NCBI GenBank assembly: GCA_029260965.1
Contig: JAJDCG010000001.1
Location: 312,012 to 376,011 of the forward strand
Direction of reading: 5' to 3'
Source of the DNA: Candidatus Levyibacteriota bacterium
Lineage (GTDB): Bacteria; Patescibacteriota; Microgenomatia; Levybacterales; UBA12049
DNA length: 64,000 bases
A program made the translations under genes and the position numbers. A model generated the notes under the pieces. That model did no database searches, was not told the DNA's origin, and saw nothing but the letters and a program-made list of their open reading frames with translations. Shown here piece by piece: positions 100-63,984 of this stretch. Numbering within the stretch: the stretch's first letter is position 1; each line of letters opens with the position of its first letter.

Positions 100-1071
100 T
101 CATATCGTGATTTTATTTATGTTTTCTATTATACGTTTTTCAATAGGATAATCAAACTCCTCAAAAGTATTCCCAGTTATTTTTTCATAAACTTCAACAT
201 AACGCTGTGCTGTTTGGATTATCAAATCCTCCGACATTTCAGGAGGAGGCCCATCTCCCTGATACCCTTTGTCAGCATACCAAAGACGTAAGAACTCTTT
301 ATCAAAATTCTCTGGCTCCTGGCCTTTGATTATTCTCTCTTTGTATGTATCAGCAATCCAGAATCGTGATGAGTCAGGAGTATAGATTTCATCAATCAAC
401 ATCAATTTTCCATCAAATAATCCAAATTCATATTTTGTATCAACCAAAATAATTCCGTGCTCAGCACACCACCTGCTGCCAAATTCAAACAAATCGAGGG
501 AAACTTTTTCCATTTGTTCATAGAGTTTTTTATTGACAATTTTTTGATTGATAATCTCTTCTCGTGTTAATCTCTCATCATGAACATCGGATCCTGCAGC
601 TGGATGAGTGGTGGGTGTGATGATTGGCTGTTTTAGTCTTTGATTTTTTTTCATACCATCAGGAAATCTAATTCCATAGATATTTCGTTCTCCGTTTTGA
701 TAGGAATACCATACAGATGTTTTGGTAACTCCTGATAGATAGCCTCTTACAACCATCTCAACGGGAATAGGCTTACAATTTCTGGAAATAAGAACATTTG
801 GGTCGGGGACTGAGAGCATATGGTTATCAACTATATTTTTTGTCTTTTCAAACCAAAATGCTGCTAGCTGATTAAGAACTGCGCCCTTGAAGGGAATGTT
901 TCCCAAAATTACATCAAAAGCTGACTGTCTATCTGTTGTTACGGTTATTCTCGTATTATTTTTAATATAAAAATCACGCACCTTGCCCGAGTATTTTTTT
1001 CCAAGATTTGGAAGATCGATAGATTCTAAAGCACGAGGAATTGTATTTAATATTGTTTTTTCATCAATCAT
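100..1071 (-). CDS. purC: Phosphoribosylaminoimidazole-succinocarboxamide (SAICAR) synthase, long (~320 aa) form
   Basis: 323-aa ORF with the SAICAR-synthetase fold (long eukaryote/yeast-like form rather than the ~237-aa bacterial form). Last gene of the overlap-coupled pur operon; 4-nt overlap with purE. Confidence 0.8.
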
Positions 1072-1601
1072 TTATTTTTATCAAGATAATCTTTAACACC
1101 TAGTCTATCAAGCATATCTACCTTTTCCATTACCATATCTTCAAGATCTATTTGATATTTTTCCAATTTTTTCTGAATTTCTTTATTAGTAGCGCCGATT
1201 ATTCGGGCTGCCAGGAGTCCTGCGTTTTTAGCGCCATTTATCGCAACTGTTGCAACAGGTATGCCTGATGGCATCTGGACAATTGATAGAAGTGAGTCAA
1301 GTCCATCAAGGGACTTTGTTTTGACAGGGACACCGATAACTGGAAGAGTTGTGTGAGAGGCAACCATACCTGGAAGATGAGCTGATCCACCAGCTCCAGC
1401 AATTATTACCTGTAAGCCTTTGCCTGATGCTGTTTTGGCATACTCATTCATTCTGTCTGGTGTTCTGTGAGCTGAGACAATTGTTGTTTCGTTTGGTATA
1501 CCAATCTCGTCAAGAATTTTTCCTGCCTCACTCATCACAGGGAGATCACTATCCGAGCCCATTATTATGCCAATGATTGGTTGATTGTTTGAATTCTCCA
1601 T
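1068..1601 (-). CDS. purE: N5-carboxyaminoimidazole ribonucleotide mutase (class I PurE)
   Basis: PurE motifs GSDSDLPVM and [16 protein letters not shown]. Start moved to the internal ATG (MENSNN.., 1599-1601), leaving a 2-nt gap after the purK stop instead of a 46-nt overlap. Confidence 0.85.
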
Positions 1602-1603
1602 TG

Positions 1604-2743
1604 CTATACTGTTATAAGTGACCTTGCTTTTTCTGCCTTTGCTTTGCATTCATCAAGCGAATTTCCAACAACTGTGATGTGTCCCATTTTGCGTTCAATT
1701 CTTGTCTCCAGTTTACCATAAATATGGACAAAAACGCCAGGAATTTTTTCGGCTTTTTTAATTCCTTGAGGCTTTGCTTTTCCTTTTCTTTCTCCAAGTA
1801 TGTTTATCATTACCGAGGCTGGCACAATCATTTTGGTCTCTCCAAGATCCATTCCCGAAATAGCTCTGAGGTGTTGTTCAAATTGAGATGTTTTATTTGC
1901 TTCAATTGTATGGTGGCCTGAGTTGTGAACGCGTGGCGCAATTTCATTTATAAGGATTTCGTTAGCAGCAGTTAGAAACATTTCTACCCCAAATACTCCA
2001 GCTCCATCAAGTAGTTTTATTGCATCTTCTGCTATTTGTTTTGCTTTCGCCTTAGTTTTTTTATCAATGGACGCAGGAGAAAAAAGATAATTAAGAATGT
2101 TATTTTCATGAATTGTCTCAACAACAGGATATGAGTTAATTATACCAGAAGTATTTCTAGCCACCATAATAGCTAATTCTTTCTTAAACGGTACAAACTT
2201 TTCTACATATAAATTTTTGCCATGAAGTTTTCCTAGCGCGTCATCAATTTGATTTTCTGTTTTGATTAATGCATTTCCTCTCCCATCATACGCGCCAGTT
2301 CTAGCCTTTAGCAGTACAGGATATCCAAATTTTTTAATTGCCATTTTTATATCAGATTTTGTTTTTACTTCCAAAAAATCAGGAATCGGTAGATTATTTT
2401 TTTGGAGGAATTCGTTTTGTTTGAGCTTGTCTTGAATAATAGCTAGTGTTTTGGGAGATGGATGAACTGGTTTACCACCGTCCTTGATTTCTTGAAGAAT
2501 GTTTTGGAGTCCTTTCTCATTTGTTACTTCAACTTCAATTGTCAAAACATCTGTTTTGTCAGCAAGTTCCTGAATTGCTTTTTTGTTAGTAAGCTCAGCT
2601 ACTATTTGTTCATCTGCTATTTGTCCTGCAGGGGAATTGGGATCGGGGTCTAGTACTATTAGTGAGAATCCAAGCTTGTGCGCAGGGTCAACCATCATTC
2701 TGGCCAACTGCCCTCCACCAATTATTCCTACTCTAGTTGTCAT
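1604..2743 (-). CDS. purK: N5-CAIR synthetase (ATP-grasp)
   Basis: N-terminal [13 protein letters not shown] and an ATP-grasp body typical of PurK. Start chosen at [11 protein letters not shown] (ATG 2741-2743), which has an AGGAAA SD-like element; the ORF-track start at 2761 has none. Confidence 0.8.
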
Positions 2744-4136
2744 TTGTATTTCCTGATTCATCTATTTCTTTTATAGCTTTTTCTGTTAACTCAACAGCAA
2801 GTCCGATATAGTTTTCGGGAGTCAATTTTTTAAATTTTGTTTTTATATTTTCATCAACTGATAATCCATCAACCCACTTGCTCCAATCTTCAGGATTTAC
2901 GTTTTTTCCTCTTGTAAGAGTCGAGATAAGTGAATAAGGATCATTAACATTTTCTTTCCTTAAAAAGGTTTGAACAGCCTCTCCCAGTATCGACCAGTCT
3001 TTATTAAGCGCCCTTATTATCTCCTCAATGTTTGGTTCAATTCTTGAAAGACCAGCTAGGGTACTTTTGTATCCGATCAAAGAATTGCCAAGAAATGTTC
3101 CGATTTCCCTAAGAGTTGTGCTGTCAGATAAGTCCCTTTGCAGTCTTGAGATGGGTAGTTTGCGGACAAAAAAATCACCCAAAGAATTTGCTATTCCAAG
3201 ACGTCCTTCACTATTTTCAAAATCAATTGGATTTACCTTTTGGGGCATGGTTGACGATCCCACCTCGCCTTTTACAGTAGATTGCACAAACCAATGATCA
3301 CTGATATATCGCCACATATCCTGGTCCAGATCAATTATGATTCCATTTATTCTTTGATAGACTTGGATCATCTCGATTATATCCTCAGGTGGATTGATTT
3401 GAGTTGTAACAAGATTTGGTGTAAGCTCGAGAGATTTTATAAATTTTTCAGAAAATTCAATCCAGTCAATATTAGGATAGGTGTAGAATAAAGCATTAAA
3501 ATTTCCAACAGCTCCATTTAGTTTTCCTGTTAGCTTTAGTGATTTGAGTTTAATTGCCTCGTTGTTTAAGCGAGTTGCAAATACCGCAAATTCTTTGCCG
3601 ACAGTGGTTGGGACCGCTGCTTGTCCATGAGTTCTAGCAAGCATGGGTATAGCTTTGTATTTTTCAGCTCTTTTTACCATTTCACCGACAAGCTTATTGA
3701 GTTTTGGAAGTATTACCTTGTTGGTTGCATCAACTAGCTGCATTCTGTATGAGAGATTATTAATGTCTTCTGATGTGAGACCAAAATGAATCATTTCAAG
3801 TTGATCTTTGAGAGTTGTAGATTCAAGTTTTTTTCTCAATATTCGCTCAACTGCCTTGACATCATGACGAGTTTCTTTTTCAATATCTTTTACTTTTTCA
3901 ATATCTTCATCAGTTATTATTTCACTGCTTAAGTCCTGCAATAATTTTTCTTCTTTTTCTGTAAATTTGCGGGCAATACCTGCAATTGATAAAGCAAGAA
4001 GATATTTGGCTTCAATTTTGATGCGGTTTTTTATAAGTCCGTATTCTGATGTGATGGTTGAGAGTTCATCTACTTTTTGATTATATCTTCCATCAATTGC
4101 AGATATTGATTTTAGGGTTGATTTTTGATCTTTCAT
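2733..4136 (-). CDS. purB: Adenylosuccinate lyase
   Basis: 467-aa ORF of PurB length, with the fumarate-lyase family signature region (GSSTMPQKVNP-like) and the N-terminal IDGRYNQ motif. Confidence 0.85.
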   Translation of the reverse strand: MKDQKSTLKSISAIDGRYNQKVDELSTITSEYGLIKNRIKIEAKYLLALSIAGIARKFTEKEEKLLQDLSSEIITDEDIEKVKDIEKETRHDVKAVERILRKKLESTTLKDQLEMIHFGLTSEDINNLSYRMQLVDATNKVILPKLNKLVGEMVKRAEKYKAIPMLARTHGQAAVPTTVGKEFAVFATRLNNEAIKLKSLKLTGKLNGAVGNFNALFYTYPNIDWIEFSEKFIKSLELTPNLVTTQINPPEDIIEMIQVYQRINGIIIDLDQDMWRYISDHWFVQSTVKGEVGSSTMPQKVNPIDFENSEGRLGIANSLGDFFVRKLPISRLQRDLSDSTTLREIGTFLGNSLIGYKSTLAGLSRIEPNIEEIIRALNKDWSILGEAVQTFLRKENVNDPYSLISTLTRGKNVNPEDWSKWVDGLSVDENIKTKFKKLTPENYIGLAVELTEKAIKEIDESGNTNDN

Positions 4137-4137
4137 A

Positions 4138-5232
4138 CTAACTAATTATATCACTTAGCTTGTTTTGTTCTTGTGCTTTTTTTATTTCCATAGCAATTCT
4201 ACGCCCAACATTTACAGGTTTTCCAAAGAGATAGCCACTGTACGGCGTTGCTGTAATTCCTGGTGATCCGGGGAAACGGGGAGAGACATCTATAACAACT
4301 ATGTCTTTTTTTGGTGGACCTGGTACTATAAATGATTGAAGCGCAAACGGTCCGACAATACCAGGATTTGTTAGTTCTTTGCAGGCTTTTACAAATCTCT
4401 CACCAATTTCAAATGCTGGCTCAAGCATTGATTCAAGAACTGTTACTGCGGTATGACTTGCTTCTTCATAAGAGATTGTGATTTTTTTTAAAACTTCTTC
4501 TTGATAATTAGCTGGCAGTTTGGTTATTCCATGAAAATTTGTTTGGCGTCTGGTATCGGTTCCAAGAAGCTCAAGTCTGTCTGATATGGGTGAATAGAAA
4601 AAGTTGAAGTTAACTTGTACTCCTACGATGAATTCTTCGATCACTGCTTTTTTGATCTGTTCTTCTGTAAAAAGACCGATATACATCTTCTGTTCTATTT
4701 GCTTGAGATAATCTTCATAGCTATCAACTATAAAAAATGCTCTTTCAAATTCTCTGTCTTTCTCGAGAATCTTTACAAGACATACTCTGTCTATTTTTTT
4801 AGGGTCTTTGAATTGTTTGGGGTAGCGGATTTTGGCAACATCAAGAAGGTCGTACTGGTTTGGCTTGAAACCTCTTTCCTCAATTCTTAAAAGTTTTTTA
4901 TTTCCAAACATAGGGACTTCAAATTTATTTTCAATTGCATCATAGTCATTGATATATACCTCAAAAGATCTATTTGGGATAAAAATTGCGTTTGCGGCTT
5001 TCAATTTTTCCTGGATATCAGGATTTAGCACTTCTGAAAATTTATTTACCAAAATTACTTCATCAACACATCCGGTTTCACCCTTTGATTTATAGTACTT
5101 TGCATATGTTTTTTCTCTACCTTTCTGACAAATAATTAAATTTTTAAATCCCTCATCTTTGGCGCCGCGAGCTACTTCGAGTGCCGAATGGCTGCCAATT
5201 GCTGCAATTGTTATTGGTTTATTGCTGTTCAT
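4138..5232 (-). CDS. purP: Archaeal-type formate-dependent FAICAR synthetase (PurP family; DUF1246/DUF1297 ATP-grasp), paralog A
   Basis: N-terminal IAAIGSHSALEVARGAKDEGF and the FFYSP / GPFALQ ATP-grasp motifs resemble archaeal PurP as I recall it. 364 aa. Confidence 0.65.
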   Translation of the reverse strand: MNSNKPITIAAIGSHSALEVARGAKDEGFKNLIICQKGREKTYAKYYKSKGETGCVDEVILVNKFSEVLNPDIQEKLKAANAIFIPNRSFEVYINDYDAIENKFEVPMFGNKKLLRIEERGFKPNQYDLLDVAKIRYPKQFKDPKKIDRVCLVKILEKDREFERAFFIVDSYEDYLKQIEQKMYIGLFTEEQIKKAVIEEFIVGVQVNFNFFYSPISDRLELLGTDTRRQTNFHGITKLPANYQEEVLKKITISYEEASHTAVTVLESMLEPAFEIGERFVKACKELTNPGIVGPFALQSFIVPGPPKKDIVVIDVSPRFPGSPGITATPYSGYLFGKPVNVGRRIAMEIKKAQEQNKLSDIIS

Positions 5233-5233
5233 G

Positions 5234-6727
5234 TTAGTGCTTAAAGCTTCTGATTCCCGTAAATATCATAGCGACATCTGCTTCATTGCAGGCGTCAATT
5301 GTTTCTTGATCTCTGATAGAGCCTCCAGGTTGAATGATTGCTTTAATCCCTGCTTTTATTAATGTGTCTGGTCCGTCTCTGAAAGGAAAAAATCCATCTG
5401 TTGCTGCGACTGCTCCCTCAAGAGGCGTGAGTGCCTTACTGACACATAGCTCGCAACATCTTTTTCTGTCTTGTTGACCAACTCCTGATGCAATCAAAAC
5501 ACCATCTTTTACAGCAACAACACAATTTGATTTACTGACTTGAGATATTTTCCAAGCAAACATCAAGTCATCAATTTGTTTGCTGGTTGGTTTTTTCTTT
5601 GTCACTGTTTTTAGGTTATTTACCTCAAGCCTCATGATATCAGCATCCTGGATCAGATATCCTCCTCTGACTCTCTTTTGATCATCATACGGGACAAGAA
5701 AGGGTTTTTCAAGGTCTTTATTTTCAAGAAGTTGGAGTTTTGGTCTACTACTGAGCTCAGCTAAGGCTTCTTTTGTAAATCCTGGTGCTGCCACTATTTC
5801 AAAAAACTTTTTGTCTGCAAGCATCTGTTTTGCTAGTTTTTCATCTACAACTCTGTTGAATAAGATTACTCCTCCGAATGCCGCCAGGGGATCTCCCTCA
5901 AACCATGCTTTATGAAAAGCATCATGAATATTGTCGGCAATTGCAACGCCACATGGATTGGTGTGTTTTAAAATAACACAGGCAGGTGTTGCGCCGTTGA
6001 TTAGTGAAATTGTCATAAGTCCTGAATCAAGATCTAGATAATTATTAAATGATGTTTCCTTTCCTTGAATAACCTTGAAGTTGTTAAGTCCGAGTTTGTC
6101 TTTTCCATTATCAGAAAAGAAAAAGGCTTTTTGATGAGGGTTTTCTCCATATCTTAATTCTTTTCCGTTTTTTAAAATTTGATATTTATTTTTTGATCCG
6201 AAGAAGTTTGAGATTGAGATATCATATTCTGTAACATATGAAAATGCTTTTGCTGCTAATTTTTTTCTTTCCTCAAGTGTTGTTTGTCCTTTTGTCAGTA
6301 GTTTATAATCGTCAGGATCAACCAAGACAGATACGCTTTCATAGTTTTTGGCTGCAGCCCTTGCCATTGTTGGTCCGCCAATATCAATCATTTCAATACC
6401 AGGTTTTTCGCTGAAGGCGTAAAAATTACAGATTACGAAATCTATATGAGGGATTTTTAATTCTTCTGCTTCTTTCTGATGAGTTTTATTGCTTCTGTCA
6501 AAGAGAATTCCTGAGAGCGCCTGAAAGCTAATTGTCTTTACCCGACCACCAAAACTTTCAGGGTTTTTGGTAATTTCTTCAATTGGTGTAATCTTGATTT
6601 TATTTTTCTTGAGAAGTTCAGCTGTGCCGCCGGTTGCAATTATTTCTATATTATTTTTTATGAGGTTTTTTGCCAGATCTACAATTCCGGTTTTGTCATA
6701 AACACTAATTAGGGCGTATTTCTTCAT
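5234..6727 (-). CDS. purH: Bifunctional AICAR transformylase / IMP cyclohydrolase
   Basis: N-terminal MGS-like IMPCH domain (ALISVYDKTGIV..ATGGTA) and C-terminal AICARFT domain with the KHTNPCGVA motif. Full length at 497 aa. Confidence 0.9.
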   Translation of the reverse strand: MKKYALISVYDKTGIVDLAKNLIKNNIEIIATGGTAELLKKNKIKITPIEEITKNPESFGGRVKTISFQALSGILFDRSNKTHQKEAEELKIPHIDFVICNFYAFSEKPGIEMIDIGGPTMARAAAKNYESVSVLVDPDDYKLLTKGQTTLEERKKLAAKAFSYVTEYDISISNFFGSKNKYQILKNGKELRYGENPHQKAFFFSDNGKDKLGLNNFKVIQGKETSFNNYLDLDSGLMTISLINGATPACVILKHTNPCGVAIADNIHDAFHKAWFEGDPLAAFGGVILFNRVVDEKLAKQMLADKKFFEIVAAPGFTKEALAELSSRPKLQLLENKDLEKPFLVPYDDQKRVRGGYLIQDADIMRLEVNNLKTVTKKKPTSKQIDDLMFAWKISQVSKSNCVVAVKDGVLIASGVGQQDRKRCCELCVSKALTPLEGAVAATDGFFPFRDGPDTLIKAGIKAIIQPGGSIRDQETIDACNEADVAMIFTGIRSFKH

Positions 6728-6729
6728 AA

Positions 6730-7746
6730 TTATCCAAGGATTAGGGGCAGCTTGTTTTTTTCAATTGCAATTTTTATCTCCCTTGCGATCCTCCTTCCTG
6801 TGCTCATTGGTTCGTTATAGTAGAGCCATGAATATGGAGAGCCGTTGGTAAAGATGTTTGTGCCAGCGACAATCCTGCAGGAAATTTCAAGAACGTAAAA
6901 TTTGGCATCAGGGGTGATTATGGTTTCAAGACAAAAAGGTCCAAAAATTCCTTTTTTATCTATTAATTTTCTGGATGCTTCAATTGTTTTTCTGCCCATA
7001 TCATATGCTTCAGGCAGCATACTCTCACGTAACACAAGATCACTGTTTCCAACAACAACATAACTTGGTTCAATGTCTAGCCCTTCCTGTCCAAGAAGTG
7101 GAATTCTTCCTATCCCATCAGCATTTGTTTCATATCTTCTGTCCATGCTCATAATCTCCAATTTGTCAGTAAGAGGAGAGTAGAAATAATGTATGTAAAG
7201 AGGTACACCAATCACGTATTCTTGAATTATGAATTTTTTATTACCAAAAGCAATGATTTTTTTTTCAAAATCAGTTTTGTTTTTTGCGTAAAAATATCCT
7301 TTTCCACCAGCTGCACCATAAGATTTCACAATAATTGGATAAGTGACCGGTTCGTGTTCGAAATCATACTGTTTAGGAACATTAATTCCTGCTTTGCTGA
7401 GCCACTCTCTTTGTTGTCTCCTGTCTTCTTCCCAGTCAAGAACACTCTTATTGCCATAATATGGCAATTTCATGTTTTTGTTCTTTTCTGTTCCAAGATG
7501 AGCTACAAATGAACCATGAGGTATGATAATGACGTTTTTTTCTTTTAGTTTATCCTCGATTGAGGGAAAGTCTGAAAATGAAGCAAGAGTTATGAATTCA
7601 TCAATAAAGGGAAATGATTTGTAGAATTCCTCTCGTTCTTTTGTGGTGATTATGAGAGTTTTAAAGCCTTCGTCTTTGGCGCCTTTTAATATCTGAAGCG
7701 ATGAATGACTTCCTAGTGTCGCAATTGTGTGTTTATTATTTTTCAT
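6730..7746 (-). CDS. purP: Archaeal-type FAICAR synthetase (PurP family), paralog B
   Basis: IATLGSHSSLQILKGAKDEGF, IIPHGSF, HYFYSP, GPFCLE and LSTGRRIAREIK motifs closely follow PurP. 338 aa. Confidence 0.7.
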   Translation of the reverse strand: MKNNKHTIATLGSHSSLQILKGAKDEGFKTLIITTKEREEFYKSFPFIDEFITLASFSDFPSIEDKLKEKNVIIIPHGSFVAHLGTEKNKNMKLPYYGNKSVLDWEEDRRQQREWLSKAGINVPKQYDFEHEPVTYPIIVKSYGAAGGKGYFYAKNKTDFEKKIIAFGNKKFIIQEYVIGVPLYIHYFYSPLTDKLEIMSMDRRYETNADGIGRIPLLGQEGLDIEPSYVVVGNSDLVLRESMLPEAYDMGRKTIEASRKLIDKKGIFGPFCLETIITPDAKFYVLEISCRIVAGTNIFTNGSPYSWLYYNEPMSTGRRIAREIKIAIEKNKLPLILG

Positions 7747-7749
7747 AGT

Positions 7750-8553
7750 TTATTTATTAAAATATTGTACAGCATTTTTGAATATAGATAAACCCGGTCC
7801 TTCAGATGATGTTTTTTTGCCTGTTCTTTTGTGCTCTTCTTTTTTAATTTGCCAGTTGGGGAGTTGGGTAAAAAACATGCCCCGTTCAGGGTGTGGCATG
7901 AGACCCAGTATTTTTCCTGATCCATCAATGATGCCTGCTATATCAAGCGCTGATCCGTTGGGATTGTAGGGAAGATCAAGATATTTACTCATTTCGCCAG
8001 CCTCATATTTTAGTGCAATTTGTTTGTTCGTTTCAAGTTTTTTGAGATCATTTGCTTTTGCAAAAAACTTTCCTTCTCCATGCGCAATTGGCAAAGATAG
8101 TTTTTCTATTCCATCAAGCCAGGGAGTTTTGGTGGTTACTTTTAGATCAGTCCAGCGACATATGAATCTCGCGCTTTCATTATTTAAAAGCGCCAAATCT
8201 CTTTGACCATAGTTATTTTCAAATGCTGGAAAAAGTCCAGTATTGGCAATAATTTGACAACCATTACAAATTCCGATTACTAATTTATCTTTTTCTATAA
8301 ATTTCAATAACTTTTCCCAGAGATGATTTTTAATCTTGTTTGCGTATGCGATACCAGCTCCTGTATCATCGCCATATGAAAATCCTCCGGGAAAAGAAAG
8401 AATCTGGTAGTCATCGAGTTTGTAAAGTCCATCAATTATGTCATTGATGTGGATTATCTCTGATTCAGCACCAGCCAGTGTAAAGCCATATGCTGTTTCT
8501 GCTTCCGAGTTTAGTCCGTATCCTGAGAAAATTAGCACTCTTGGTTTTTTCAT
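7750..8553 (-). CDS. purQ: FGAM synthase glutaminase subunit
   Basis: Class-I glutamine amidotransferase: GICNGCQ nucleophile elbow and HPER near the C-terminus, which are PurQ hallmarks. Confidence 0.85.
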   Translation of the reverse strand: MKKPRVLIFSGYGLNSEAETAYGFTLAGAESEIIHINDIIDGLYKLDDYQILSFPGGFSYGDDTGAGIAYANKIKNHLWEKLLKFIEKDKLVIGICNGCQIIANTGLFPAFENNYGQRDLALLNNESARFICRWTDLKVTTKTPWLDGIEKLSLPIAHGEGKFFAKANDLKKLETNKQIALKYEAGEMSKYLDLPYNPNGSALDIAGIIDGSGKILGLMPHPERGMFFTQLPNWQIKKEEHKRTGKKTSSEGPGLSIFKNAVQYFNK

Positions 8554-8555
8554 AT

Positions 8556-11522
8556 TTAATAATCTTTAAAAGTTTTTTTATATTGATTTTTTGCGTTATT
8601 AAGCTTTATGTTTACTATTTTCTTTCCCGATAAGCCTTTTATTATTATTTCAGGTTTTTTTGTAACTGTTCCAATTTGTTTTATTTTATTTCCACTCATT
8701 GTCTTTTCAAATGCTTTTTTATTTTTGGGTGCGATTGATATTAGAATTCTGCCTTGGCTTTCTGAAAAAAGAGCCAGATCATTTCTTGTGATGCTACCTG
8801 GAAGATTTTCAAGTGACACATCAACACCCAGCATCCCACCAATTGATTTTTTGGCAATAGCAACAGCCAGACCGCCTTTGCCTATGCTGATACTTGATGC
8901 GATCAGTTCTTTTTGAATTGCTTTGTAGAAATCTTTGTACATTTTAAAATTCTTTTTTGTATTTACAATTGGTGTTTTCGTACTGCTGACATTCTTCATA
9001 GATAAATACTCGGATCCTCCCAGCTCATCAAAAGTTTCACCTAGGATATAAATCAAATCATTTTCCTTTTTTGCATCAAGAGAAACTGTTTTGTTTATAT
9101 CCTCAATAACACCAATTGATGAGATCAGAAGGGTTGGGGGAATTGTGACTTTTACTGGTTTGCTGTTTTTGTCAAAACCGTTGAATTCATTAAACATGCT
9201 GTCTTTTCCTGAAATGTAGGGAGTTTGATAATCAACTGCAGTGTCATAGCATGCTTTGGCTGCCATTTTTAGTTGAAAAAGCCTTTGGGGGGTATTGCTT
9301 TCTGTCCAGCAAAAATTATCAAGCAAAGCGATATAGTCAGGATTGCCACCTATTGCAACTGCATTGCGAACTGCTGTATCTATACTTGCTGCAGCCATAG
9401 CATAAGGATTTATGTCAGAGTAGTTTGGATAAAGAGCTTGAGACATCACAACGCCTCTTTGAGACTGAAGAACTGGACGGAAAACAGACGCTTCTGAGTT
9501 TACTCGACCTGATCCCTGGAGTGGCCCGAGGACTGCACCTCCGAGCACTATGTGATCGTACTGGCTAGAGATGAATTCAATGCTGGTTATGTTTAATCTT
9601 GCAAGCATCTGAGAAACAGACATGTTTAGATTCACATCTGTTGGTATTGTTGCCTGGTGCTTGTTGTTTGTTGTTTTGTCAGAAATCATCTTGCGTTGGG
9701 GTAATCCGTCGTGGAGAAATTTCATATCAATATCGAGAATTGTTTTGTTTTTGTATTTTACAATTCCTTTTTTTGAGTTGGTAAATTTACCAATTATCGT
9801 TGCTTCAACGCCTCGTCTTTTCATAAGGGAGTTAAATTTAACCCAGTTTTTTTCTGGAACAGCAAGGGTCATTCTTTCTTGAGATTCTGATATCCAGATT
9901 TCCCAAGGGTCCAGGCCCTGGTATTTGAGTGGGGTTTTTTCAAGATCGAGTACAAATCCTCCTGACTCTTTTGCCATTTCTGAAACAGAGCAAGACAGTC
10001 CTCCTGCTCCATTATCAGTTATGCTGCTGTAGAGAAGTTGATCTCTTGCTTCATTTATAATTGCGTCGCTTAATTTTTTTTGTGTGATAGGATCACCGAT
10101 CTGGACTGCTGCTGCTGGGCTTTTAGTGTTTAGGCTTTCTGAAGAAAAGGTTGCTCCGTGCACACCGTCTTTTCCGACTCTTCCACCGATCATGACTATC
10201 AGGTCACCAGGTTGAGCATTTTTGATGTGTGAGGGTTTATTTTTTATTTTTTTGGGAATAAGACCTATTGTTCCCGCAAAGACAAGCGGTTTTCCTCTGT
10301 AGCCCTCATGGAAATAAACAAATCCCTGAGGTGTTGGGATTCCTGATTGATTACCACCTGCATTTATTCCAGCAATAACCCCATCCATAATTCTGCGGGA
10401 TGAGAGCATTTTTTGAGATTTATTTTTATTTCTATATAAAGGTATGTCTATTGCAGGATCTGCAAGGCAGAATCCATAAAAATTTGCAACCGGTTTGGCT
10501 CCAAGTCCAAATCCCAGTGTGTCGCGATTGACACCTACTATTCCAGTTATTGCTCCGCCAAATGGATCAAGAGCTGATGGGCTGTTGTGTGTTTCGACTT
10601 TATGAGTGATTAAATAATTTTCATCAAACGAAATGCCACCTGAATTGTCAGTGAATACTGATACGCAAAAATCTTTCTTTCCTTTAATTTTCCTTATTTT
10701 TTCAGTTGCGCCCTTGATGTAGGTTTTATATAGCCCATTTTTAATATTGTCGATTGGATCATTAAAAATAGTGTGCTTACAATGCTCAGACCATGTTTGG
10801 GCAAGTGATTCCAGCTCTATATCAGTTGGGCTTCTTCCAAGTTTTTTAAAATATTTTTGAATGGTTTTCATGAATGAAAGATCAAGTGCTAGGGGGCCAC
10901 GAGTTGTTCCGTCCTGGTTTTGGATTCCATTTTTTCCTATTTTTGCTAGCTCTTCATCGCTGATATTTAGATTTATCTCAATGACTTTTGGTTGATGCTT
11001 TATATCTACTTTTGGAACGAATAAATCCATTCCGCCGTCTTTTAGGAATTGCTGATAGCTCTTGATGTGGGCTCTCTGGATAAGAGGATTGTAAAGAGTT
11101 AGCGATATTTCTTTTGCGTCTTTTTCAGACACTTTGCCTGTCAAAAAGGTTACTTGAGACGAGTAGACATCTTCACCGTTCCTAAATTTTGTTTTTAGAC
11201 TATCTTCAATTATTTCTTTTGCAGTATGTCCGATGTTGTCTGTAACTCCAGGTAAAAATCCAATCTCAATTGCAAAGGTGAATTTTTTAGGAGGTGTAAA
11301 TCTAGCTTTTTCTGTTTGAAAGACAACTGATTGGGTTAGGGGATTTGATAGTTTTTTCCCGATTGATATCAGTTGTTTATCATCTAGTTTTTTTGCAACA
11401 GTATAAATGTCATAGATCCAAAGATCTTTTATTTTTTTAAATCCCTGATTTTTCAGTTTATCGATACGATTTTTGGCTCTGGTATCAAAAACATTTGTAA
11501 TTATTCCAATTCTTGCTGTCAT
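8556..11522 (-). CDS. purL: FGAM synthase synthetase subunit with a fused large-PurL-type (PurS-like) N-terminal domain
   Basis: 988 aa. Residues ~200-250 (GRSPTDIELESLAQTWSEHCKHTIF) match the linker/start of the FGAM-synthetase domain in single-chain large PurL (cf. E. coli ..[25 protein letters not shown]). The ~200 aa before it correspond to the PurS-like N-domain. There is no glutaminase domain (PurQ is separate). Confidence 0.85.
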   Translation of the reverse strand: MTARIGIITNVFDTRAKNRIDKLKNQGFKKIKDLWIYDIYTVAKKLDDKQLISIGKKLSNPLTQSVVFQTEKARFTPPKKFTFAIEIGFLPGVTDNIGHTAKEIIEDSLKTKFRNGEDVYSSQVTFLTGKVSEKDAKEISLTLYNPLIQRAHIKSYQQFLKDGGMDLFVPKVDIKHQPKVIEINLNISDEELAKIGKNGIQNQDGTTRGPLALDLSFMKTIQKYFKKLGRSPTDIELESLAQTWSEHCKHTIFNDPIDNIKNGLYKTYIKGATEKIRKIKGKKDFCVSVFTDNSGGISFDENYLITHKVETHNSPSALDPFGGAITGIVGVNRDTLGFGLGAKPVANFYGFCLADPAIDIPLYRNKNKSQKMLSSRRIMDGVIAGINAGGNQSGIPTPQGFVYFHEGYRGKPLVFAGTIGLIPKKIKNKPSHIKNAQPGDLIVMIGGRVGKDGVHGATFSSESLNTKSPAAAVQIGDPITQKKLSDAIINEARDQLLYSSITDNGAGGLSCSVSEMAKESGGFVLDLEKTPLKYQGLDPWEIWISESQERMTLAVPEKNWVKFNSLMKRRGVEATIIGKFTNSKKGIVKYKNKTILDIDMKFLHDGLPQRKMISDKTTNNKHQATIPTDVNLNMSVSQMLARLNITSIEFISSQYDHIVLGGAVLGPLQGSGRVNSEASVFRPVLQSQRGVVMSQALYPNYSDINPYAMAAASIDTAVRNAVAIGGNPDYIALLDNFCWTESNTPQRLFQLKMAAKACYDTAVDYQTPYISGKDSMFNEFNGFDKNSKPVKVTIPPTLLISSIGVIEDINKTVSLDAKKENDLIYILGETFDELGGSEYLSMKNVSSTKTPIVNTKKNFKMYKDFYKAIQKELIASSISIGKGGLAVAIAKKSIGGMLGVDVSLENLPGSITRNDLALFSESQGRILISIAPKNKKAFEKTMSGNKIKQIGTVTKKPEIIIKGLSGKKIVNIKLNNAKNQYKKTFKDY

Positions 11523-12793
11523 AATCTGCCTATATCTGATCTGTATTGCATTCCCTCAAAATGTATTCCGTTTGGGCCAATTGTACTGTAAGCCTTTTTT
11601 AGGGCCTCATTTAGAGTTTCACCTGTTGCTGTTATGCCCAGGACCCGACCGCCGTTTGTGACAAAATTGTTTCCATTTTTTTTGGTAGCAAAGTGAAAGG
11701 TAGTAATTTCGGGATCATGGGCAAATTTCTCCAATCCGTTGATTGCAATCCCTTTTTGCGAACTGACGGGATAACCATTTGATGCAAGGACAATGCAACA
11801 AGCGATTTTTTTTGACCATTTTATATTTATTTCCGAAAGTTTTTTTTCTACGCAAGCGTTTAATATTTCAAAAATATCTGTCTCAAGAAGTCTCATGTAG
11901 GACTCCATTTCTGGATCACCAAAGCGTGAATTAAATTCAATTACTTTCGGTCCGTCTTTTGTCATCATCAATCCTGGATAAAGGCATCCTGTAAAGGGAA
12001 TTCCCATTTTTTTCATTCCCTGAATTGCTGGAGTCACAATTTTTTCTTTTATTTCATTAATTTCTTTTTCTGATATTTCAGAAAGTGGCGCGATAGTTCC
12101 CATGCCACCGGTATTGGGACCTCTATTGCCATCGTGAATTGGTTTGTGATCTCTTGCTGTTGGGAAAAGTGAAATTGTTTTTCCGTCAGAGAATGCATGG
12201 ATTGAAACTTCCTTACCCTCCAGATATTCCTCGATTACTATTTCCGCTCCAGCATCACCAAAAACTTTTTTGATCATCGCATCATTAATTGCGCTGATTG
12301 CTTCATTGATTGTTTTTGCAACAACAACGCCTTTGCCCAATGCGAGGCCTGATGCTTTTATGACAATGGGTGCTCCATGTTTTCTTGTATAATCTTTCGC
12401 TTTTTCAGCATCAGTAAACGTTTTGTATCTTGCTGTTGGTATATTATTTTCCCTCATCAGGTTTTTTGCAAACGCTTTTGATGACTCAATTTGCGCAGCT
12501 TCTTTTGTGGGACCAAAAATTTTGAGTTCATGTTTCTCAAAGGTGTTTACTATGCCAGATGCTAAGACATCATCAGGTCCGGCAATAGTTAGGTCAATCG
12601 AGTTTTCTTTTACGAATTTGATGAGGGATTCAAAATCAAATGGGTTGATGTCTGTGTTTTTTCCGACCAGCTCAGTGCCTGCTGTTCCTGGGGCAAAATA
12701 AATATTGTTAACCTTTGGTGATTGTTTTAATTTCCAGCCCAATGCATGTTCTCGTCCTCCTGATCCAATAATTAATATGTTGTTTTTTACCAT
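11519..12793 (-). CDS. purD: Phosphoribosylamine-glycine ligase (GAR synthetase)
   Basis: N-terminal ILIIGSGGREHALGWKL; ATP-grasp; 424 aa. Confidence 0.9.
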   Translation of the reverse strand: MVKNNILIIGSGGREHALGWKLKQSPKVNNIYFAPGTAGTELVGKNTDINPFDFESLIKFVKENSIDLTIAGPDDVLASGIVNTFEKHELKIFGPTKEAAQIESSKAFAKNLMRENNIPTARYKTFTDAEKAKDYTRKHGAPIVIKASGLALGKGVVVAKTINEAISAINDAMIKKVFGDAGAEIVIEEYLEGKEVSIHAFSDGKTISLFPTARDHKPIHDGNRGPNTGGMGTIAPLSEISEKEINEIKEKIVTPAIQGMKKMGIPFTGCLYPGLMMTKDGPKVIEFNSRFGDPEMESYMRLLETDIFEILNACVEKKLSEINIKWSKKIACCIVLASNGYPVSSQKGIAINGLEKFAHDPEITTFHFATKKNGNNFVTNGGRVLGITATGETLNEALKKAYSTIGPNGIHFEGMQYRSDIGRL

Positions 12794-14916
12794 ACAAAAT
12801 CTCCTTTACTGATATCGATATTTTGGCTAATAACGTGAAGTACTCTTTTTATAGCTGTTGGTAAAACCTGGTATTCTGTTTCATGTATTTTTTTCTCCCA
12901 TGTTTCAAATGAATCGTTTTTGTGTCTGGCAACCTCTGATTTTAATATAATCGGGCCTATATCAAAATTTTCGCTTGGAATCACTTGATGAACAGTGACA
13001 CCTGATACTGGAAGATTTTGATCATACGCTTCTCTTATTGCGTGAGCGCCTCTGATTACGGGAATTTTTCCTTTGGATGTGCGGATTGTTTCTTTGAATT
13101 CTTTTGTCATTAGTGAAGGGTGGAGATTTATTACTGGTATTTCAAGGTTCTGCATTTCTTTGAGGAATTTATATCCTAGTACCAACATCCAGCCTGACAA
13201 TATAATGAGGTCAGGGTTTGTATTTTTAACCTCAGCAGTCAATTTTTCTTCATAGTTTTCACGTGTTTTTTTATCTGAAAGTTTACCCTGGTATGGAATT
13301 ATTGATATCGGAATATTATGTTTTTTGGCTCTAATTGTAGCGTATGCATCTTCCTTATTGGAGAGGACAGATATAATTTTTGCGTTTATATCGTTAGACT
13401 CAATACGATCTATTATTTTTTGTAAATTTGTTCCTGATCCTGAAACAAAGATAGAGATTTTGGGCTTGCTATTTATTTTTTTATGCATTTTTTTAAATAC
13501 AAATTGTTCGTCTCTTACAGGATGTGGGCCACCGAAAATGTAGTGATAAAAATCTTCTTTTTTACCACCCATTGCAAGTGCTGTTTCTTCAATGGGTAGG
13601 TATATTACTTCATCTGCTTTGACTTTTTTTGCCATTTCTTTTTCTATAATTTCAATTGGTTCATTTTCAAATGCGGATGCAGCCAATTCTTGTTTAGTTC
13701 TCATATCAATTCCTAAATCGCATTGATTCACAACAGGAGGGGATGCAAAAGCCATATATATTTTTTCAGCACCAGCATCTCTGATGTCTCTTGCTAGTAT
13801 TGTGCTTGTTGTTAGTCTGACTGCAGAGTCGTCAACAACTATCACTTTTTTTCCTCTGATCTCATCAGCAACAACATTATGCTTACCACTTACTGCTGCA
13901 ATTCGGTTCTCTTGACCAGGTCTTATAAAGGTGCGTCCGACATAGTGACTTGTGGTAATAGCATCAACAATAGGAATATCAAGTTCTTTGGCAACTCCTT
14001 TGGCAGCAGGATACCCAGAGTCGAAAATGGGGATAACAATATCTGCCTTGATTCCCTTGTTTCTTATCCGTGTTCCTAGGAACTTTCCTGATTTTTCTCG
14101 TCCTGCTTTTACTCTTTTACCGTTTGCAAAACTGTCAGGGCGTGAGAAGTAAATTCCCTCAAAGATGCACGGCTGTGGTTTTTTAACAGTCCCGAAAAAC
14201 TGAGAATTGATAGTGCCTTCATCGTCAATGCGTATTATTTCCCCGGGTATGATGTCGCGTAGGTATTCTGCTTTTAGAATATCTAAAGCAACCGATTCAG
14301 ATGCCATAACCCATCCGTCATGAAGTTTTCCAAGGCAGAATGGTCTGATACCGTATGGGTCTCTAATGCCGAATAGTTCATTGTCATTAGTGACAATAAC
14401 TAGGTTGTATGCGCCGTTGAAAAGGGGCATACATTTTTTTATAGTATCTATCCAAGTTTTATATTTTGGTCTTTCCTGGATCAAAAATTCTGCAACAATG
14501 TTCGTATCGCTATCTTGTTGTTTTTTATTTTTTAAAAGTTTTATTACATTTGAAACATCAGGAATATTTCCGTTGTGGCCTATTGATATCTCAAATTTTC
14601 CATTTTTCAGGTGAATTGGCTGAGCATTGTTTAAAGAAGATTGTCCAAAAGTACCGTATCTGTTTTGACCTATCGCAAACTTACTTTTGCCGAATTTTTT
14701 TACAACCTTGTCATTGAGAACGTGTGGTATGAGTCCCATGTTTTTGTAGGTTAAAATTTTATTTTTTGCTCCAATAACACTCATACCAGCACTTTCTAAT
14801 CCACGGTGTTGGAGTGTGGCGAGACCTGATCTCGCATAGTATGCTGCATTGCTATCAGCGGTGTAGATACCGATGACTCCACATTTTTCATGAATATCTA
14901 ATTTGCTGTTTCTCAT
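12787..14916 (-). CDS. purF: Fusion protein: amidophosphoribosyltransferase (PurF) + phosphoribosylglycinamide formyltransferase (PurN)
   Basis: Residues 1-~470 carry an 11-aa propeptide then Cys (MRNSKLDIHEKC-GVIG), the Ntn glutaminase domain and a PRTase domain (VIVVDDSAVRLTTS). Residues ~480-709 carry a PurN domain (SGSGTNLQ, NLHPSL, SGVTVHQV..DIGPII). Confidence 0.8.
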   Translation of the reverse strand: MRNSKLDIHEKCGVIGIYTADSNAAYYARSGLATLQHRGLESAGMSVIGAKNKILTYKNMGLIPHVLNDKVVKKFGKSKFAIGQNRYGTFGQSSLNNAQPIHLKNGKFEISIGHNGNIPDVSNVIKLLKNKKQQDSDTNIVAEFLIQERPKYKTWIDTIKKCMPLFNGAYNLVIVTNDNELFGIRDPYGIRPFCLGKLHDGWVMASESVALDILKAEYLRDIIPGEIIRIDDEGTINSQFFGTVKKPQPCIFEGIYFSRPDSFANGKRVKAGREKSGKFLGTRIRNKGIKADIVIPIFDSGYPAAKGVAKELDIPIVDAITTSHYVGRTFIRPGQENRIAAVSGKHNVVADEIRGKKVIVVDDSAVRLTTSTILARDIRDAGAEKIYMAFASPPVVNQCDLGIDMRTKQELAASAFENEPIEIIEKEMAKKVKADEVIYLPIEETALAMGGKKEDFYHYIFGGPHPVRDEQFVFKKMHKKINSKPKISIFVSGSGTNLQKIIDRIESNDINAKIISVLSNKEDAYATIRAKKHNIPISIIPYQGKLSDKKTRENYEEKLTAEVKNTNPDLIILSGWMLVLGYKFLKEMQNLEIPVINLHPSLMTKEFKETIRTSKGKIPVIRGAHAIREAYDQNLPVSGVTVHQVIPSENFDIGPIILKSEVARHKNDSFETWEKKIHETEYQVLPTAIKRVLHVISQNIDISKGDFVW

Positions 14917-14959
14917 AAGTATGAATTATAAAAAAATAATTCTAAAGTTTTCTGATTTT

Positions 14960-14988
14960 GGGACGAAAAACCCCGCGTCGTAGCGGGG
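14960..14988 (-). terminator. Leader hairpin (CCCCGC-loop-GCGGGG) followed by T5 on the minus strand, inside the purF 5' UTR
   Basis: Forward 14971-14988 ccccgcgtcgtagcgggg. The minus-strand reading is hairpin then TTTTTCG (forward A-run 14966-14970). It lies between the putative promoter and the purF start codon. Confidence 0.4.
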
Positions 14989-15056
14989 CTGCAAAAATTT
15001 AATGATATCTATTTTTAATAATCTTGAAATTATGGACCATGTAGTTTCCATACATG

Positions 15057-15085
15057 ATTATAATTCATTTGAGTTTTGGTGTCAA
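15057..15085 (-). promoter_or_regulatory. Near-consensus sigma70 promoter for the pur operon (TTGACA-17 nt-TATAAT)
   Basis: Minus strand: TTGACA (forward tgtcaa 15080-15085), a 17-nt spacer, TATAAT (forward attata 15057-15062). About 135 nt upstream of the purF ATG. Confidence 0.45.
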
Positions 15086-15465
15086 TTATCTTTCAAAATT
15101 GCTATCATTATAATGACGTGAAGAAAATAGTTATTAGAAATATATTTGTCATATCTATAATTTTTCTTATTGTTTTTTTAGTTTCAGCAAATGAAGAGTA
15201 TATCAGAAGGAAAGCTATTTCTCTTCTGGGAGATGGTACTTCTCAGGTAAGGGGTGCTAGCACAGAGAAGGGGGAAGAGGTATCAGGAAAGATCAGCTCA
15301 GATATTGGCGACCAAATGAGCTTAATAAAAGATGATTTGCTTGACATAAGAATAGGGGACATTATGGATGGTTTGTCTCGTGCTAGAAAAATTTCTCATG
15401 ACCTTAGTCAAGTAAGTATTTATATTCGAGATAAAGTTGATGGTGTGTTACAATCTGATAAATAA
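15076..15465 (+). CDS. Hypothetical small membrane-anchored protein (N-terminal TM; alternative GTG start at 15115)
   Basis: The ORF starts with TTG in the track and there is no ATG. It has a hydrophobic N-terminus (IVIRNIFVISIIFLIVFLV) then a charged soluble part. It ends 3 nt before prfB. Confidence 0.35.
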   Translation: MVSIIFQNCYHYNDVKKIVIRNIFVISIIFLIVFLVSANEEYIRRKAISLLGDGTSQVRGASTEKGEEVSGKISSDIGDQMSLIKDDLLDIRIGDIMDGLSRARKISHDLSQVSIYIRDKVDGVLQSDK

Positions 15466-15468
15466 TTT

Positions 15469-44051: not shown

Positions 44052-44052
44052 T

Positions 44053-45066: not shown

Positions 45067-45070
45067 CTTC

Positions 45071-45607: not shown

Positions 45608-45610
45608 TCT

Positions 45611-46468: not shown

Positions 46469-46470
46469 TA

Positions 46471-47349: not shown

Positions 47350-47363
47350 ATAATTATTAAATT

Positions 47364-48650: not shown

Positions 48651-48653
48651 AGA

Positions 48654-49610: not shown

Positions 49611-49621
49611 AATAATAAATT

Positions 49622-50593: not shown

Positions 50594-50645
50594 TTACCAA
50601 TCCTCTCTATTTCAAAACCCTCCAAATTTTAGTAAGATATACATT

Positions 50646-52768: not shown

Positions 52769-52770
52769 TT

Positions 52771-62703: not shown

Positions 62704-63984
<1,281 letters not shown>

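Follow-up and report, generated by a model that had tools for sequence, protein, structure and literature searches.

Eukaryotes are well known for multifunctional purine enzymes; we know of none that includes the committed step-1 enzyme. The eukaryotic GARS-AIRS-GART protein (human GART/TrifGART) and the fungal GARS-AIRS protein (Ade5,7) are multifunctional and join non-consecutive steps of the pathway, as does the PurF-PurN protein described here. GARS-AIRS-GART also co-localizes early steps and carries its PurN-type domain at the C terminus, as PurF-PurN does. It differs in its partners, which are PurD and PurM, in its domain order, and in its independent origin, and the step-1 enzyme (PPAT) is a separate protein. 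The large form of PurL (PurS-PurL-PurQ in one chain) is a bacterial precedent for merged purine-pathway subunits, but its subunits belong to a single enzyme and a single step, whereas PurF-PurN unites two different steps. Other natural fusions of PurN with purine enzymes are the halobacterial PurN-PurH1, PurN-PurC-PurE, and PurD-PurN proteins (PMC3261824); none of them includes PurF, and several have PurN at the N terminus. Channelling of phosphoribosylamine (PRA) from PurF to PurD has kinetic evidence (1995), no stable complex was found, and PurL was once put forward as a scaffold (PMC10912719, section 4.2; PMC3261824). With no stable complex to isolate, whether bacteria channel the very unstable PRA from PurF to PurD has not been settled (PMC10912719; PMC3261824). 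Here, we analyze a gene that encodes PurF and PurN as one polypeptide. It lies in the window, which is the whole 64-kb stretch of a 549,591-bp contig that was analyzed.

Domain organization of the PurF-PurN protein

The purF-purN gene is a single open reading frame (Table 1). An earlier note on this DNA had placed a 709-residue frame at these positions without naming the strand; the frame is there, on the minus strand, and its start reads exactly as the note gave it, MRNSKLDIHEKC followed by GVIG. The protein consists of a complete PurF (residues 12–463), a 22-residue linker, and a complete PurN (residues 486–709). The full-length profile matches and the presence of Cys12 and Asn597/His599/Asp652 bear out the earlier description of both enzymes as complete with their catalytic residues. 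Pfam identifies GATase_6/7 (residues 77–211), Pribosyltran (277–363), and Formyl_trans_N (486–689) in the 709-residue protein, and no GARS or AIRS domain. The eukaryotic arrangement, with GARS and AIRS N-terminal to GART, is thus absent, and PurD is encoded by a separate gene. The linker overlaps nucleotides 13490–13560, the stretch flagged by the earlier note for an indel check, and base composition is unbroken across the PurF/PurN junction.

Table 1. Features of the purF-purN locus, with positions in the window.
Feature	Position	Strand	Details
sigma-70-type promoter of the pur operon	15057..15085	minus	TTGACA-17-TATAAT, 12/12 matches
leader hairpin	14963..14988	minus	CCCCGC-TACGAC-GCGGGG, then UUUUUCGU; 54 nt 5' of the ATG
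purF-purN fusion gene	12787..14916	minus	single ATG-to-stop ORF, 709 aa
start codon and 11-residue propeptide	14884..14916	minus	MRNSKLDIHEK before catalytic Cys12; from sequence
PurF Ntn glutaminase domain	14182..14883	minus	~aa 12–245; nucleophile Cys12; invariant R86, N115-G116, D137
PurF type-I phosphoribosyltransferase domain	13528..14181	minus	~aa 246–463; PRPP loop VVVDDSAVRLTTS
interdomain linker	13462..13527	minus	aa 464–485, PHPVRDEQFVFKKMHKKINSKP; conserved, basic, fixed length
PurN (GAR formyltransferase) domain	12790..13461	minus	aa 486–709; N597/H599/D652; ~16-residue insertion
ATGGTAA overlap	12787..12793	minus	purF-purN stop inside purD start; translational coupling
purD (GAR synthetase, step 2)	11519..12793	minus	424 aa; TIGR00877, 501 bits
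purL (FGAM synthase II, step 4)	8556..11522	minus	988 aa; ~220-aa N-terminal extension
rest of the operon	100..8553	minus	purQ, PurP-like, purH, PurP-like, purB, purK, purE, purC

The PurF domain

The NCBIfam purF profile (TIGR01134) matches residues 12–463 over profile positions 1–429 of 432 with 332.8 bits, slightly under the trusted equivalog cutoff of 350 bits. The fold and the catalytic residues argue for PurF-family membership despite this marginal shortfall. The nucleophile Cys12 is invariant in all 119 family members. The glutaminase residues Arg86 of the RYxTxG motif, Asn115 and Gly116 of the HNG oxyanion hole, and Asp137, as well as Asp362, Asp363, Ser364, Thr369, and Thr370 of the PRPP-loop motif DDSxVRxTT, are invariant in the fusion family and align with PurF of B. 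subtilis and Arabidopsis. The PRPP loop reads RLTT in the window PurF, where RGTT is the usual form.

The best sequence and structure matches to residues 12–463 are PurF proteins of the Bacillus subtilis/plant type (1ao0, 1gph, and 6lbp; E ~1e-74 to 1e-76, TMt 0.84–0.87); the structural matches 1ao0, 6lbp, and 1ecf span TMt 0.79–0.87. The window PurF and these enzymes have in common a propeptide before the Cys and the Ntn glutaminase plus type-I phosphoribosyltransferase fold. The first two Fe-S cysteines of the Bacillus/plant type have conserved equivalents in the window PurF, which keeps C250 (Cys in 101 of the 119 sequences) and C399 (115 of 119). Unlike the Bacillus/plant-type enzymes, the subgroup has no C-terminal CxxC, and the chain runs on into the PurN domain. 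The CxxC ligands are lost in 119 of 119 subgroup members, with FYxxPFGGPHP in their place (FYHYIFGGPHP in the window); the former Cys positions are occupied by Tyr457 in every sequence and by Pro in 117 of 119 (Ile460 in the window). The four Cys ligands, including the C-terminal CxxC, that mark the B. subtilis-type Fe-S subclass are therefore incomplete in the window PurF, and replacement of the CxxC ligands makes a [4Fe-4S] cluster unlikely in the subgroup. The CxxC is kept in more divergent PurF-PurN fusion clusters, and P0127 is one homolog that has it. Within this one protein family, the Fe-S cluster of PurF has evidently been lost secondarily.

In 103 of the 119 homologs, -EK directly precedes the Cys. 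According to the database gene calls, the propeptide is absent (Met only) in 16 of the 119, and 8–60 residues precede the Cys in the others. AF2 gives pLDDT <50 for residues 1–8, and the sequence predicts that Cys12 is exposed as an N-terminal nucleophile by propeptide removal. The term "Bacillus-like" in the earlier note suits the propeptide and the overall fold, but it does not extend to the missing CxxC or to a propeptide that varies among homologs.

The PurN domain and the linker

The NCBIfam PurN profile (TIGR00639) matches residues 486–694 with 153.5 bits, above the 150.1 cutoff, and Pfam PF00551 (Formyl_trans_N) scores 124.9 bits on this half. The catalytic residues Asn597, His599, and Asp652 (NLHPSL...D) are invariant in 119 of 119 sequences and align with N106/H108/D144 of E. 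coli PurN. The PurN half matches PurN structures with TMt 0.77–0.91. It has the Formyl_trans_N fold and the Asn-His-Asp triad in common with bacterial PurN (E. coli 1c2t, A. aeolicus 2ywr, and C. jejuni 5cjj), and differs from these proteins by an insertion of ~16 residues after NxHPxL and by its covalent bond to PurF. The insertion (TSxGxxPxxRG) directly follows NLHPSL and is a subfamily feature common to a group of CPR/Chloroflexi PurN proteins. A role for it as a fusion-specific docking element was rejected because the standalone PurNs L022, L026, P0138, and P0139 carry it as well. The PurN half is predicted to formylate GAR with 10-formyl-tetrahydrofolate.

P466 and S492 are 26 residues apart in all but one of the 119 sequences. 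Identity among the homologs is 58% in the linker, compared to 64% in the PurF half and 55% in the PurN half. The AF2 model of the fusion protein has a pLDDT of 88.6 and a pTM of 0.90, and the linker is ordered in the model (pLDDT ~93 for residues 471–490). In our reading, a pTM of 0.90 for a 463 + 224-residue protein points to a defined inter-domain orientation, and the two halves are predicted to form a single rigid body.

Distribution and origin of the fusion

At least 119 distinct homologs of 699–757 residues are 53–64% identical, and every one has both domains. Among 1.84 billion representatives, some 13 full-length clusters (50% identity) span the junction, and the PurF-PurN architecture persists down to ~31–35% identity. 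A probe of the whole junction was matched in 21 GTDB species-representative genomes, mostly Ca. Levybacteria/Patescibacteria. Chance or assembly error is excluded, as the same architecture recurs in no fewer than 119 homologs that have diverged and in 21 species-representative genomes. The pairwise identities of the PurF and PurN halves correlate (r = 0.57). We found no description of a PurF-PurN fusion in the searchable literature and no solved structure with this pairing, in line with the earlier note, which had called the architecture non-standard. That note had also proposed a search for the same fusion in related genomes. The homologs found show that the unusual fusion is real, but not a one-off; judged by its sequence distribution, a lineage of CPR bacteria (Levybacteria-like Microgenomates) has conserved it as an inherited trait.

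In an unfused relative (L022), purF and purN are adjacent with an ATGA overlap, and purN lies between purF and purD. This arrangement is likely the precursor state. Other Microgenomates have a standalone 474-residue PurF. A separate PurF-PurN fusion is found in a high-GC organism (P0228), and a distant Paceibacterota homolog (L024) lacks the PurF nucleophile and is located outside any pur operon. Elsewhere, PurN is fused to PurC-PurE, PurD, PurH1, and even a glycosyl hydrolase, and this range of partners indicates that such fusions can be selectively near-neutral.

The pur operon

CPR bacteria are commonly held to be nucleotide auxotrophs, and in their compact genomes many genes overlap. The purF-purN gene is the first of an 11-gene pur operon, and some CPR bacteria therefore carry an operon for de novo purine synthesis that is nearly complete and unusually fused. 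As the earlier note had stated, purD comes directly after it. The 7-nt overlap between purF-purN and purD is identical in five related loci (L001, L010, L012, L014, and L017), and among the related loci with downstream sequence at hand, almost all have purD 3' of the fusion gene. In four relatives (L004, L008, L013, and L020) purD is fused to purL, which places steps 1 + 3 and steps 2 + 4 on two polypeptides; the L008 fusion spans 10955–15295. Genes overlap at junctions throughout the operon.

The operon contains no second purN and no purT. It encodes a folate-dependent PurH and is otherwise complete, with the exception of purM. The motif scan, tblastn with E. coli PurM and the divergent L022 PurM as queries, and Pfam scans that covered 20 further ORFs were all empty for purM, and a purM hidden in the operon or elsewhere in the 64-kb window was rejected. 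We did not see folate or one-carbon genes in the 64-kb window of the 549,591-bp contig.

Function of the fused enzyme

The explanation that we favor, with a probability of roughly 0.6, is that PurF-PurN is a true bifunctional enzyme, passed on vertically in CPR (Levybacteria-like) bacteria, with co-localization around PurD. The PurF half would carry out step 1 (PRPP + Gln to PRA), and the PurN half would act in step 3 as a folate-type GAR formyltransferase (GAR to FGAR). The fusion most likely arose when purF and purN, side by side and overlapping, lost the stop codon between them. The halves would then have become one rigid body with a conserved linker of fixed length, and the PurF [4Fe-4S] ligands would have been lost later in the subgroup that includes the window. 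We infer that both activities are retained and that the selective value of the fusion is the fixed 1:1 stoichiometry and co-localization of steps 1 and 3 around PurD. PRA, GAR, and FGAR may be passed on within a PurFN-PurD(-PurL) assembly and not via bulk solvent. The enzyme that makes PRA and the one that consumes it are not the pair united in PurF-PurN, which covers steps 1 and 3; because the joined steps are non-consecutive, the fusion cannot channel PRA by itself. The interleaved 1 + 3 and 2 + 4 polypeptides make most sense if both associate. PRA channelling in a purinosome-like assembly, raised in the earlier note, is plausible as a hypothesis. The rigid two-domain model, the overlap that couples purD translationally to the fusion gene, and the relatives that fuse PurD to PurL are indirect pointers toward a metabolon. 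The sub-cutoff PurF score, the two missing Fe-S ligands, the RLTT loop, the many other fusion partners of PurN, and the compactness of CPR genomes count against the bifunctional-enzyme explanation, as do the folate genes, one-carbon genes, and purM not seen in the 64-kb window.

Neutral streamlining is possible, although we do not consider it likely. Both activities would be kept and the stop lost between overlapping genes of a compact CPR genome, with no channelling and no PurD complex, and linker conservation would reflect structural constraint after fusion. A precursor arrangement with a 4-nt overlap, overlapping junctions along the whole operon, the promiscuity of PurN as a fusion partner, the non-consecutive steps, and the other Microgenomates that get by with a standalone 474-residue PurF all fit this account. 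It is harder to reconcile with a linker that is fixed in length in 118 of 119 sequences and conserved on par with the catalytic domains, with the rigid single-body prediction (pTM 0.90), and with an architecture kept down to ~31–35% identity. The parallel PurD-PurL fusion with the resulting interleaved layout and the independent PurF-PurN origin in P0228 also argue against it.

A change in the role of PurN, to another substrate or formyl donor or to a structural or regulatory extension of PurF, is improbable given the invariant N/H/D triad, a fold that fits PurN structures (TMt 0.77–0.91), and the presence of the same insertion in the standalone PurN between purF and purD of L022. The PurN half is also the sole GAR formyltransferase candidate in an operon that is complete except for purM and includes the folate-dependent PurH. 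Such a change would accommodate a score barely above the cutoff (153.5 versus 150.1), the conserved ~16-residue insertion after NxHPxL, the folate genes not seen in the 64-kb window, the two PurP-like formate-dependent ligase paralogs in the operon, and the Paceibacterota L024 protein without the PurF nucleophile and outside any pur operon. The AT-rich junction with its homopolymer runs is typical ground for indel errors, and we found no other evidence for a frameshift or chimeric join that masks a stop between two genes. The continuous frame with the same linker length in at least 119 sequences that are independent, diverged, and drawn from many assemblies, the fusion in 21 species-representative genomes, and the continuous base composition over the junction effectively refute an artefact of sequencing or assembly.

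The natural and apparently rigid PurF-PurN fusion serves as "Rosetta-stone" evidence of enzymes that work side by side, and the translational coupling to purD and the PurD-PurL fusions in sister lineages strengthen this argument. A compact two- or three-protein system is on offer for channelling tests and for the structure of an assembly, and the fusion may be a natural means to learn how bacteria transfer an unstable early intermediate between enzymes. A more specific and rather doubtful proposal is that a stable mini-purinosome is built around PurF-PurN in these bacteria. PurD, in some relatives fused to PurS-PurL, would be docked between the phosphoribosyltransferase and formyltransferase sites, steps 1–4 would be arranged on two interleaved polypeptides, and PRA would never enter bulk solvent. 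If true, these CPR proteins would for the first time provide a complex that can be isolated and used to test PurF to PurD channelling.

Promoter and leader of the pur operon

Leaders of related loci carry the same TTGACA/TATAAT pair at aligned positions. Rfam gave no family for the whole window at gathering thresholds and none at E ≤ 1 for positions 14700–15600; apart from spurious sRNA matches at the terminator hairpin nothing appeared, and a known riboswitch in the leader was rejected. The leader hairpin was read in the sequence and is also present in the leader fold. It was rejected as a terminator of the upstream gene because the upstream gene (prfB plus a small ORF) runs divergently here and in most related loci, at least 11 of them. 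An equivalent hairpin, (A)ACCCGC...GCGGGT(T) followed by a T-run, is found in 19 of 21 related loci, and the leader hairpin is a candidate transcription attenuator.

A single reading frame encodes PurF and PurN

The fusion gene is one continuous ORF, and Pfam and NCBIfam matches place both enzymes in its product (see the table of features). The purF model TIGR01134 is covered end to end by residues 12–463 (332.8 bits; cutoff 350), and the PurN model TIGR00639 matches residues 486–694 (153.5 bits; cutoff 150.1). The N terminus MRNSKLDIHEKC|GVIG and the NLHPSL...D motif quoted in the earlier note were both found in the protein. The next gene is purD, as that note had stated, and its ATG overlaps the fusion stop codon (ATGGTAA). 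The ORF, the domain matches, the motifs, and the purD overlap confirm the PurF-PurN observation.

Coordinates of the fusion gene and associated features (window or locus numbering; aa, residues of the fusion protein)
Feature	Position	Strand	Basis or remark
purF-purN fusion ORF, 709 aa	12787..14916	-	ATG to stop, read from sequence
GATase_6/7	aa 77-211		Pfam
Pribosyltran	aa 277-363		Pfam
Formyl_trans_N	aa 486-689		Pfam
Inter-domain linker	aa 464-485 = nt 13462-13527	-	
purD	11519..12793	-	TIGR00877, 501 bits
purL, 988 aa	8556-11522	-	N-terminal extension of ~220 aa precedes TIGR01736 match
Two PurP-like ATP-grasp paralogs	6730-7746 and 4138-5232	-	Flank full-length purH
sigma-70 promoter	15085..15057	-	Perfect consensus, TTGACA-17-TATAAT
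pur leader	14963-15085	-	Equivalents in L002-L021
prfB (RF2), 333 aa, and preceding small ORF, 129 aa	15076-16470	+	SPF and GGQ motifs
purD-purL single ORF	L004:11146-15036		
purD-purL single ORF	L008:10955-15295		
purD-purL single ORF	L013:2454-6716		
purD-purL single ORF	L020:10892-15112		
purA	62704-63975	-	
Glycosylation/sugar-nucleotide cluster	43311-54303	+	

The fusion is conserved in a diverged family

The fusion protein was used to search 5.8 billion protein clusters. The matches listed include at least 120 proteins, all but one of which are 699–757 residues long. The listed homologs cover 98–100% of the query at only 53–64% identity, and all contain both domains. An alignment of 119 of them was used for residue and linker statistics. 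No sequence departs from Cys12, from the Ntn and PRTase catalytic residues, or from PurN Asn597/His599/Asp652. In 118 of the 119, invariant Ser492 lies 26 residues after invariant Pro466. Mean identity is 58% in the linker, 64% in the PurF half, and 55% in the PurN half, and the pairwise identities of the two halves are related with r = 0.57. There is no break in base composition at the junction in the window. An indel artefact at the junction is ruled out because the frame and linker length are identical in more than 100 diverged sequences from independent assemblies. The earlier note had called for a search of related genomes, and the same fusion was found in at least 119 homologs and 21 species-representative loci.

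These 21 loci come from a scan of one genome per GTDB species with a junction probe (residues 440–618, alignment A2), and in each the match covers the whole junction. The titles of most name Ca. Levybacteria/Levyibacteriota or Patescibacteria group, and those of some are unrelated (L001, L004, L009, L010, L012, L015, L016, and L020: Lysobacterales, Methylomirabilota, Acidiferrales, Limnocylindrales, Sulfotelmatobacter, and "uncultured Gammaproteobacteria"). All fusion loci have a G+C content of 36–42.5% and the common order purFN-purD-purL, and since the oddly titled contigs share these traits with the Levybacteria loci, they probably derive from CPR bacteria and were misbinned or mislabelled. 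Ca. Roizmanbacteria is the named source of two homologous proteins, P0105 and P0133. A second probe search, of 1.84 billion representatives at 50% identity, found about 13 full-length clusters (716–759 residues) with a junction-spanning match at identities down to about 31%. The architecture is globally rare, yet the family that carries it is established and has diverged.

AlphaFold2, run with the 119-sequence alignment, gave a model with a mean pLDDT of 88.6 and a pTM of 0.90. Confidence is low only in residues 1–8 (propeptide), 323–334 (PRTase flexible loop), and 460–462, and linker residues 471–490 have a pLDDT of ~93. A pTM of 0.90 for a 463+224-residue protein suggests that the two halves adopt a defined relative orientation. 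Foldseek searches of the PDB matched the PurF half to PurF structures (TMt 0.79–0.87) and the PurN half to PurN structures (TMt 0.77–0.91), and found no solved chain spanning both (maximum TMq 0.57).

The PurF half lacks the C-terminal Fe-S ligands

The nearest relatives of the PurF half by sequence and structure are Arabidopsis ASE2 and B. subtilis PurF. The term "Bacillus-like" used in the earlier note holds for this nearness, but the two C-terminal Fe-S ligands are absent from the subgroup formed by the window protein and its 119 homologs, and the propeptide is variable. It is 8–60 residues long by annotation and absent in 16 of the 119, and -EK directly precedes the Cys in 103. The C-terminal ligand motif is FCYACFTGDYP in the plant protein, whereas the window protein has FYHYIFGGPHP. 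None of the 119 homologs has Cys at either of these two ligand positions, and Cys250 is replaced in 18, mostly by Ser. More divergent fusion clusters (35–47% identity) keep FCYHCFGGPHP. This distribution indicates that a [4Fe-4S] cluster was probably present in the ancestral fusion and was lost secondarily in the subgroup.

Origin of the fusion

In L022, an unfused relative (8427-15917), the TGA of purF (516 aa) overlaps the ATG of purN (231 aa) as ATGA, and the genes that follow are a PurD-PurM fusion (841 aa) and purL. This bacterial PurD-PurM pairing is the same as that in fungal Ade5,7. A single frameshifting indel in an L022-like purF/purN overlap would generate the fusion. The PurN domain of the fusion carries an insertion of ~16 residues after NxHPxL that is also found in standalone PurNs such as that of L022, so the insertion characterizes a PurN subfamily and did not arise through the fusion. 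The metagenomic, high-GC protein P0228 (636 aa, N-terminally truncated) also has the PurF plus PurN architecture. Its tail has the canonical CxxC, its short linker differs, and its PurN lacks the insertion. It was matched in its PurN part only, and the fusion probably arose independently a second time.

Function and novelty of the fusion

The sequence and the structural model give good support to a real bifunctional enzyme of steps 1 and 3. Phosphoribosylamine is very labile, and kinetics suggest PurF to PurD channelling; a stable PurF-PurD complex was never isolated, and PurL was formerly proposed as a scaffold (PMC10912719 section 4.2; PMC3261824). The fusion partners catalyze steps 1 and 3, so the producer and consumer of phosphoribosylamine stay on separate chains. 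The selective value would plausibly lie in fixed stoichiometry and in holding together the enzymes that flank PurD, favouring a PurFN-PurD(-PurL) assembly. The main alternative is a near-neutral fusion arising from streamlining. PurN is a promiscuous partner elsewhere (PurC-PurE, PurD, PurH1, and a glycosyl hydrolase), and other Microgenomates retain a standalone PurF, both of which favour this explanation. A PurN-like domain with an altered role is a minor alternative that comes mainly from the Paceibacterota homolog (L024:8657-10714). The four Fe-S cysteines and the PurN triad are all present in this 685-aa PurF-like/PurN-like fusion, but the N-terminal Cys nucleophile is missing. Its gene is not part of a pur operon and sits among murF-like, PPIase, prfB, and ftsEX genes. 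It may be a repurposed relative.

As a predicted multifunctional purine enzyme, PurF-PurN combines domains in a new way. The earlier note judged the architecture non-standard, and this stands: although conserved in its family, it is rare, and full-text searches of open-access papers and bioRxiv found no description of it, including in CPR or Levybacteria purine biosynthesis work. An archaeal survey reports PurN-PurH1, PurE-PurE' and other fusions, none of them PurF-PurN (PMC3261824). Fusion proteins are labelled "amidophosphoribosyltransferase" by JGI and "formyltransferase family protein" or "hypothetical protein" by NCBI.

The pur operon and its leader

The operon order is purFN, purD, purL, purQ, PurP-like, purH, PurP-like, purB, purK, purE, purC, and the purFN-purD-purL synteny is found in nearly all related loci with downstream sequence. 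The purL extension bears a partial resemblance to the large-PurL N-terminal region and to the FGAR-AT linker. Since no separate purS was seen, the purL product may be a PurS-PurL-type fusion. Four relatives (L004, L008, L013, and L020) have purD and purL joined in one ORF of 1296–1446 aa with the Pfam domains GARS_N/A/C, FGAR-AT linker, and two AIRS/AIRS_C pairs; L004 has GARS_A/C only, and its called ORF begins at an internal Met. Steps 1 and 3 and steps 2 and 4 are predicted to reside on two interleaved polypeptides in these relatives. To our knowledge, a PurD-PurL fusion has not been described before. The PurP-like paralogs score far under the equivalog cutoffs (391 versus 580 bits; 286 versus 556 bits) of PurP, the archaeal-type formate-dependent AICAR formyltransferase family.

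A purM gene (AIR synthetase, step 5) was not found in the operon, in other parts of the window, or in the 10 kb on either side of any fusion gene (L001-L021); all other steps to IMP are represented in the operon. Standalone divergent PurMs (EGLGTK instead of DGVGTK) occur in Levy-, Roizman-, Davies-, and Curtissbacteria, so purM is probably encoded elsewhere in the fusion-bearing genomes. No folate or one-carbon genes were seen within the 64-kb window.

The leader has a conserved layout of promoter, short 5' element, and hairpin. The element is AATGCTC-N7-AAGCAT in many loci and of the CATGGTYACCC type in the window, L011, L014, L015, and L016. A terminator-like hairpin, (A)ACCCGC-loop-GCGGGT(T) plus a T-run, immediately precedes the ATG in 19 of 21 loci. 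No Rfam family matches the leader. The gene upstream is divergent, so the leader resembles an attenuator or operator. The upstream gene, prfB, with its small ORF, divergently adjoins the fusion gene in a neighbourhood that 11 or more related loci share, and it has no obvious frameshift site in the window. A divergent prfB neighbour is common to several oddly titled loci and Levybacteria loci. The window also contains purA and a dense glycosylation cluster with several GDP-mannose dehydratase/epimerase-family paralogs, an RmlD-like reductase, UDP-glucose dehydrogenase, GT2 glycosyltransferases (one with a GtrA domain), and a PMT-family mannosyltransferase.
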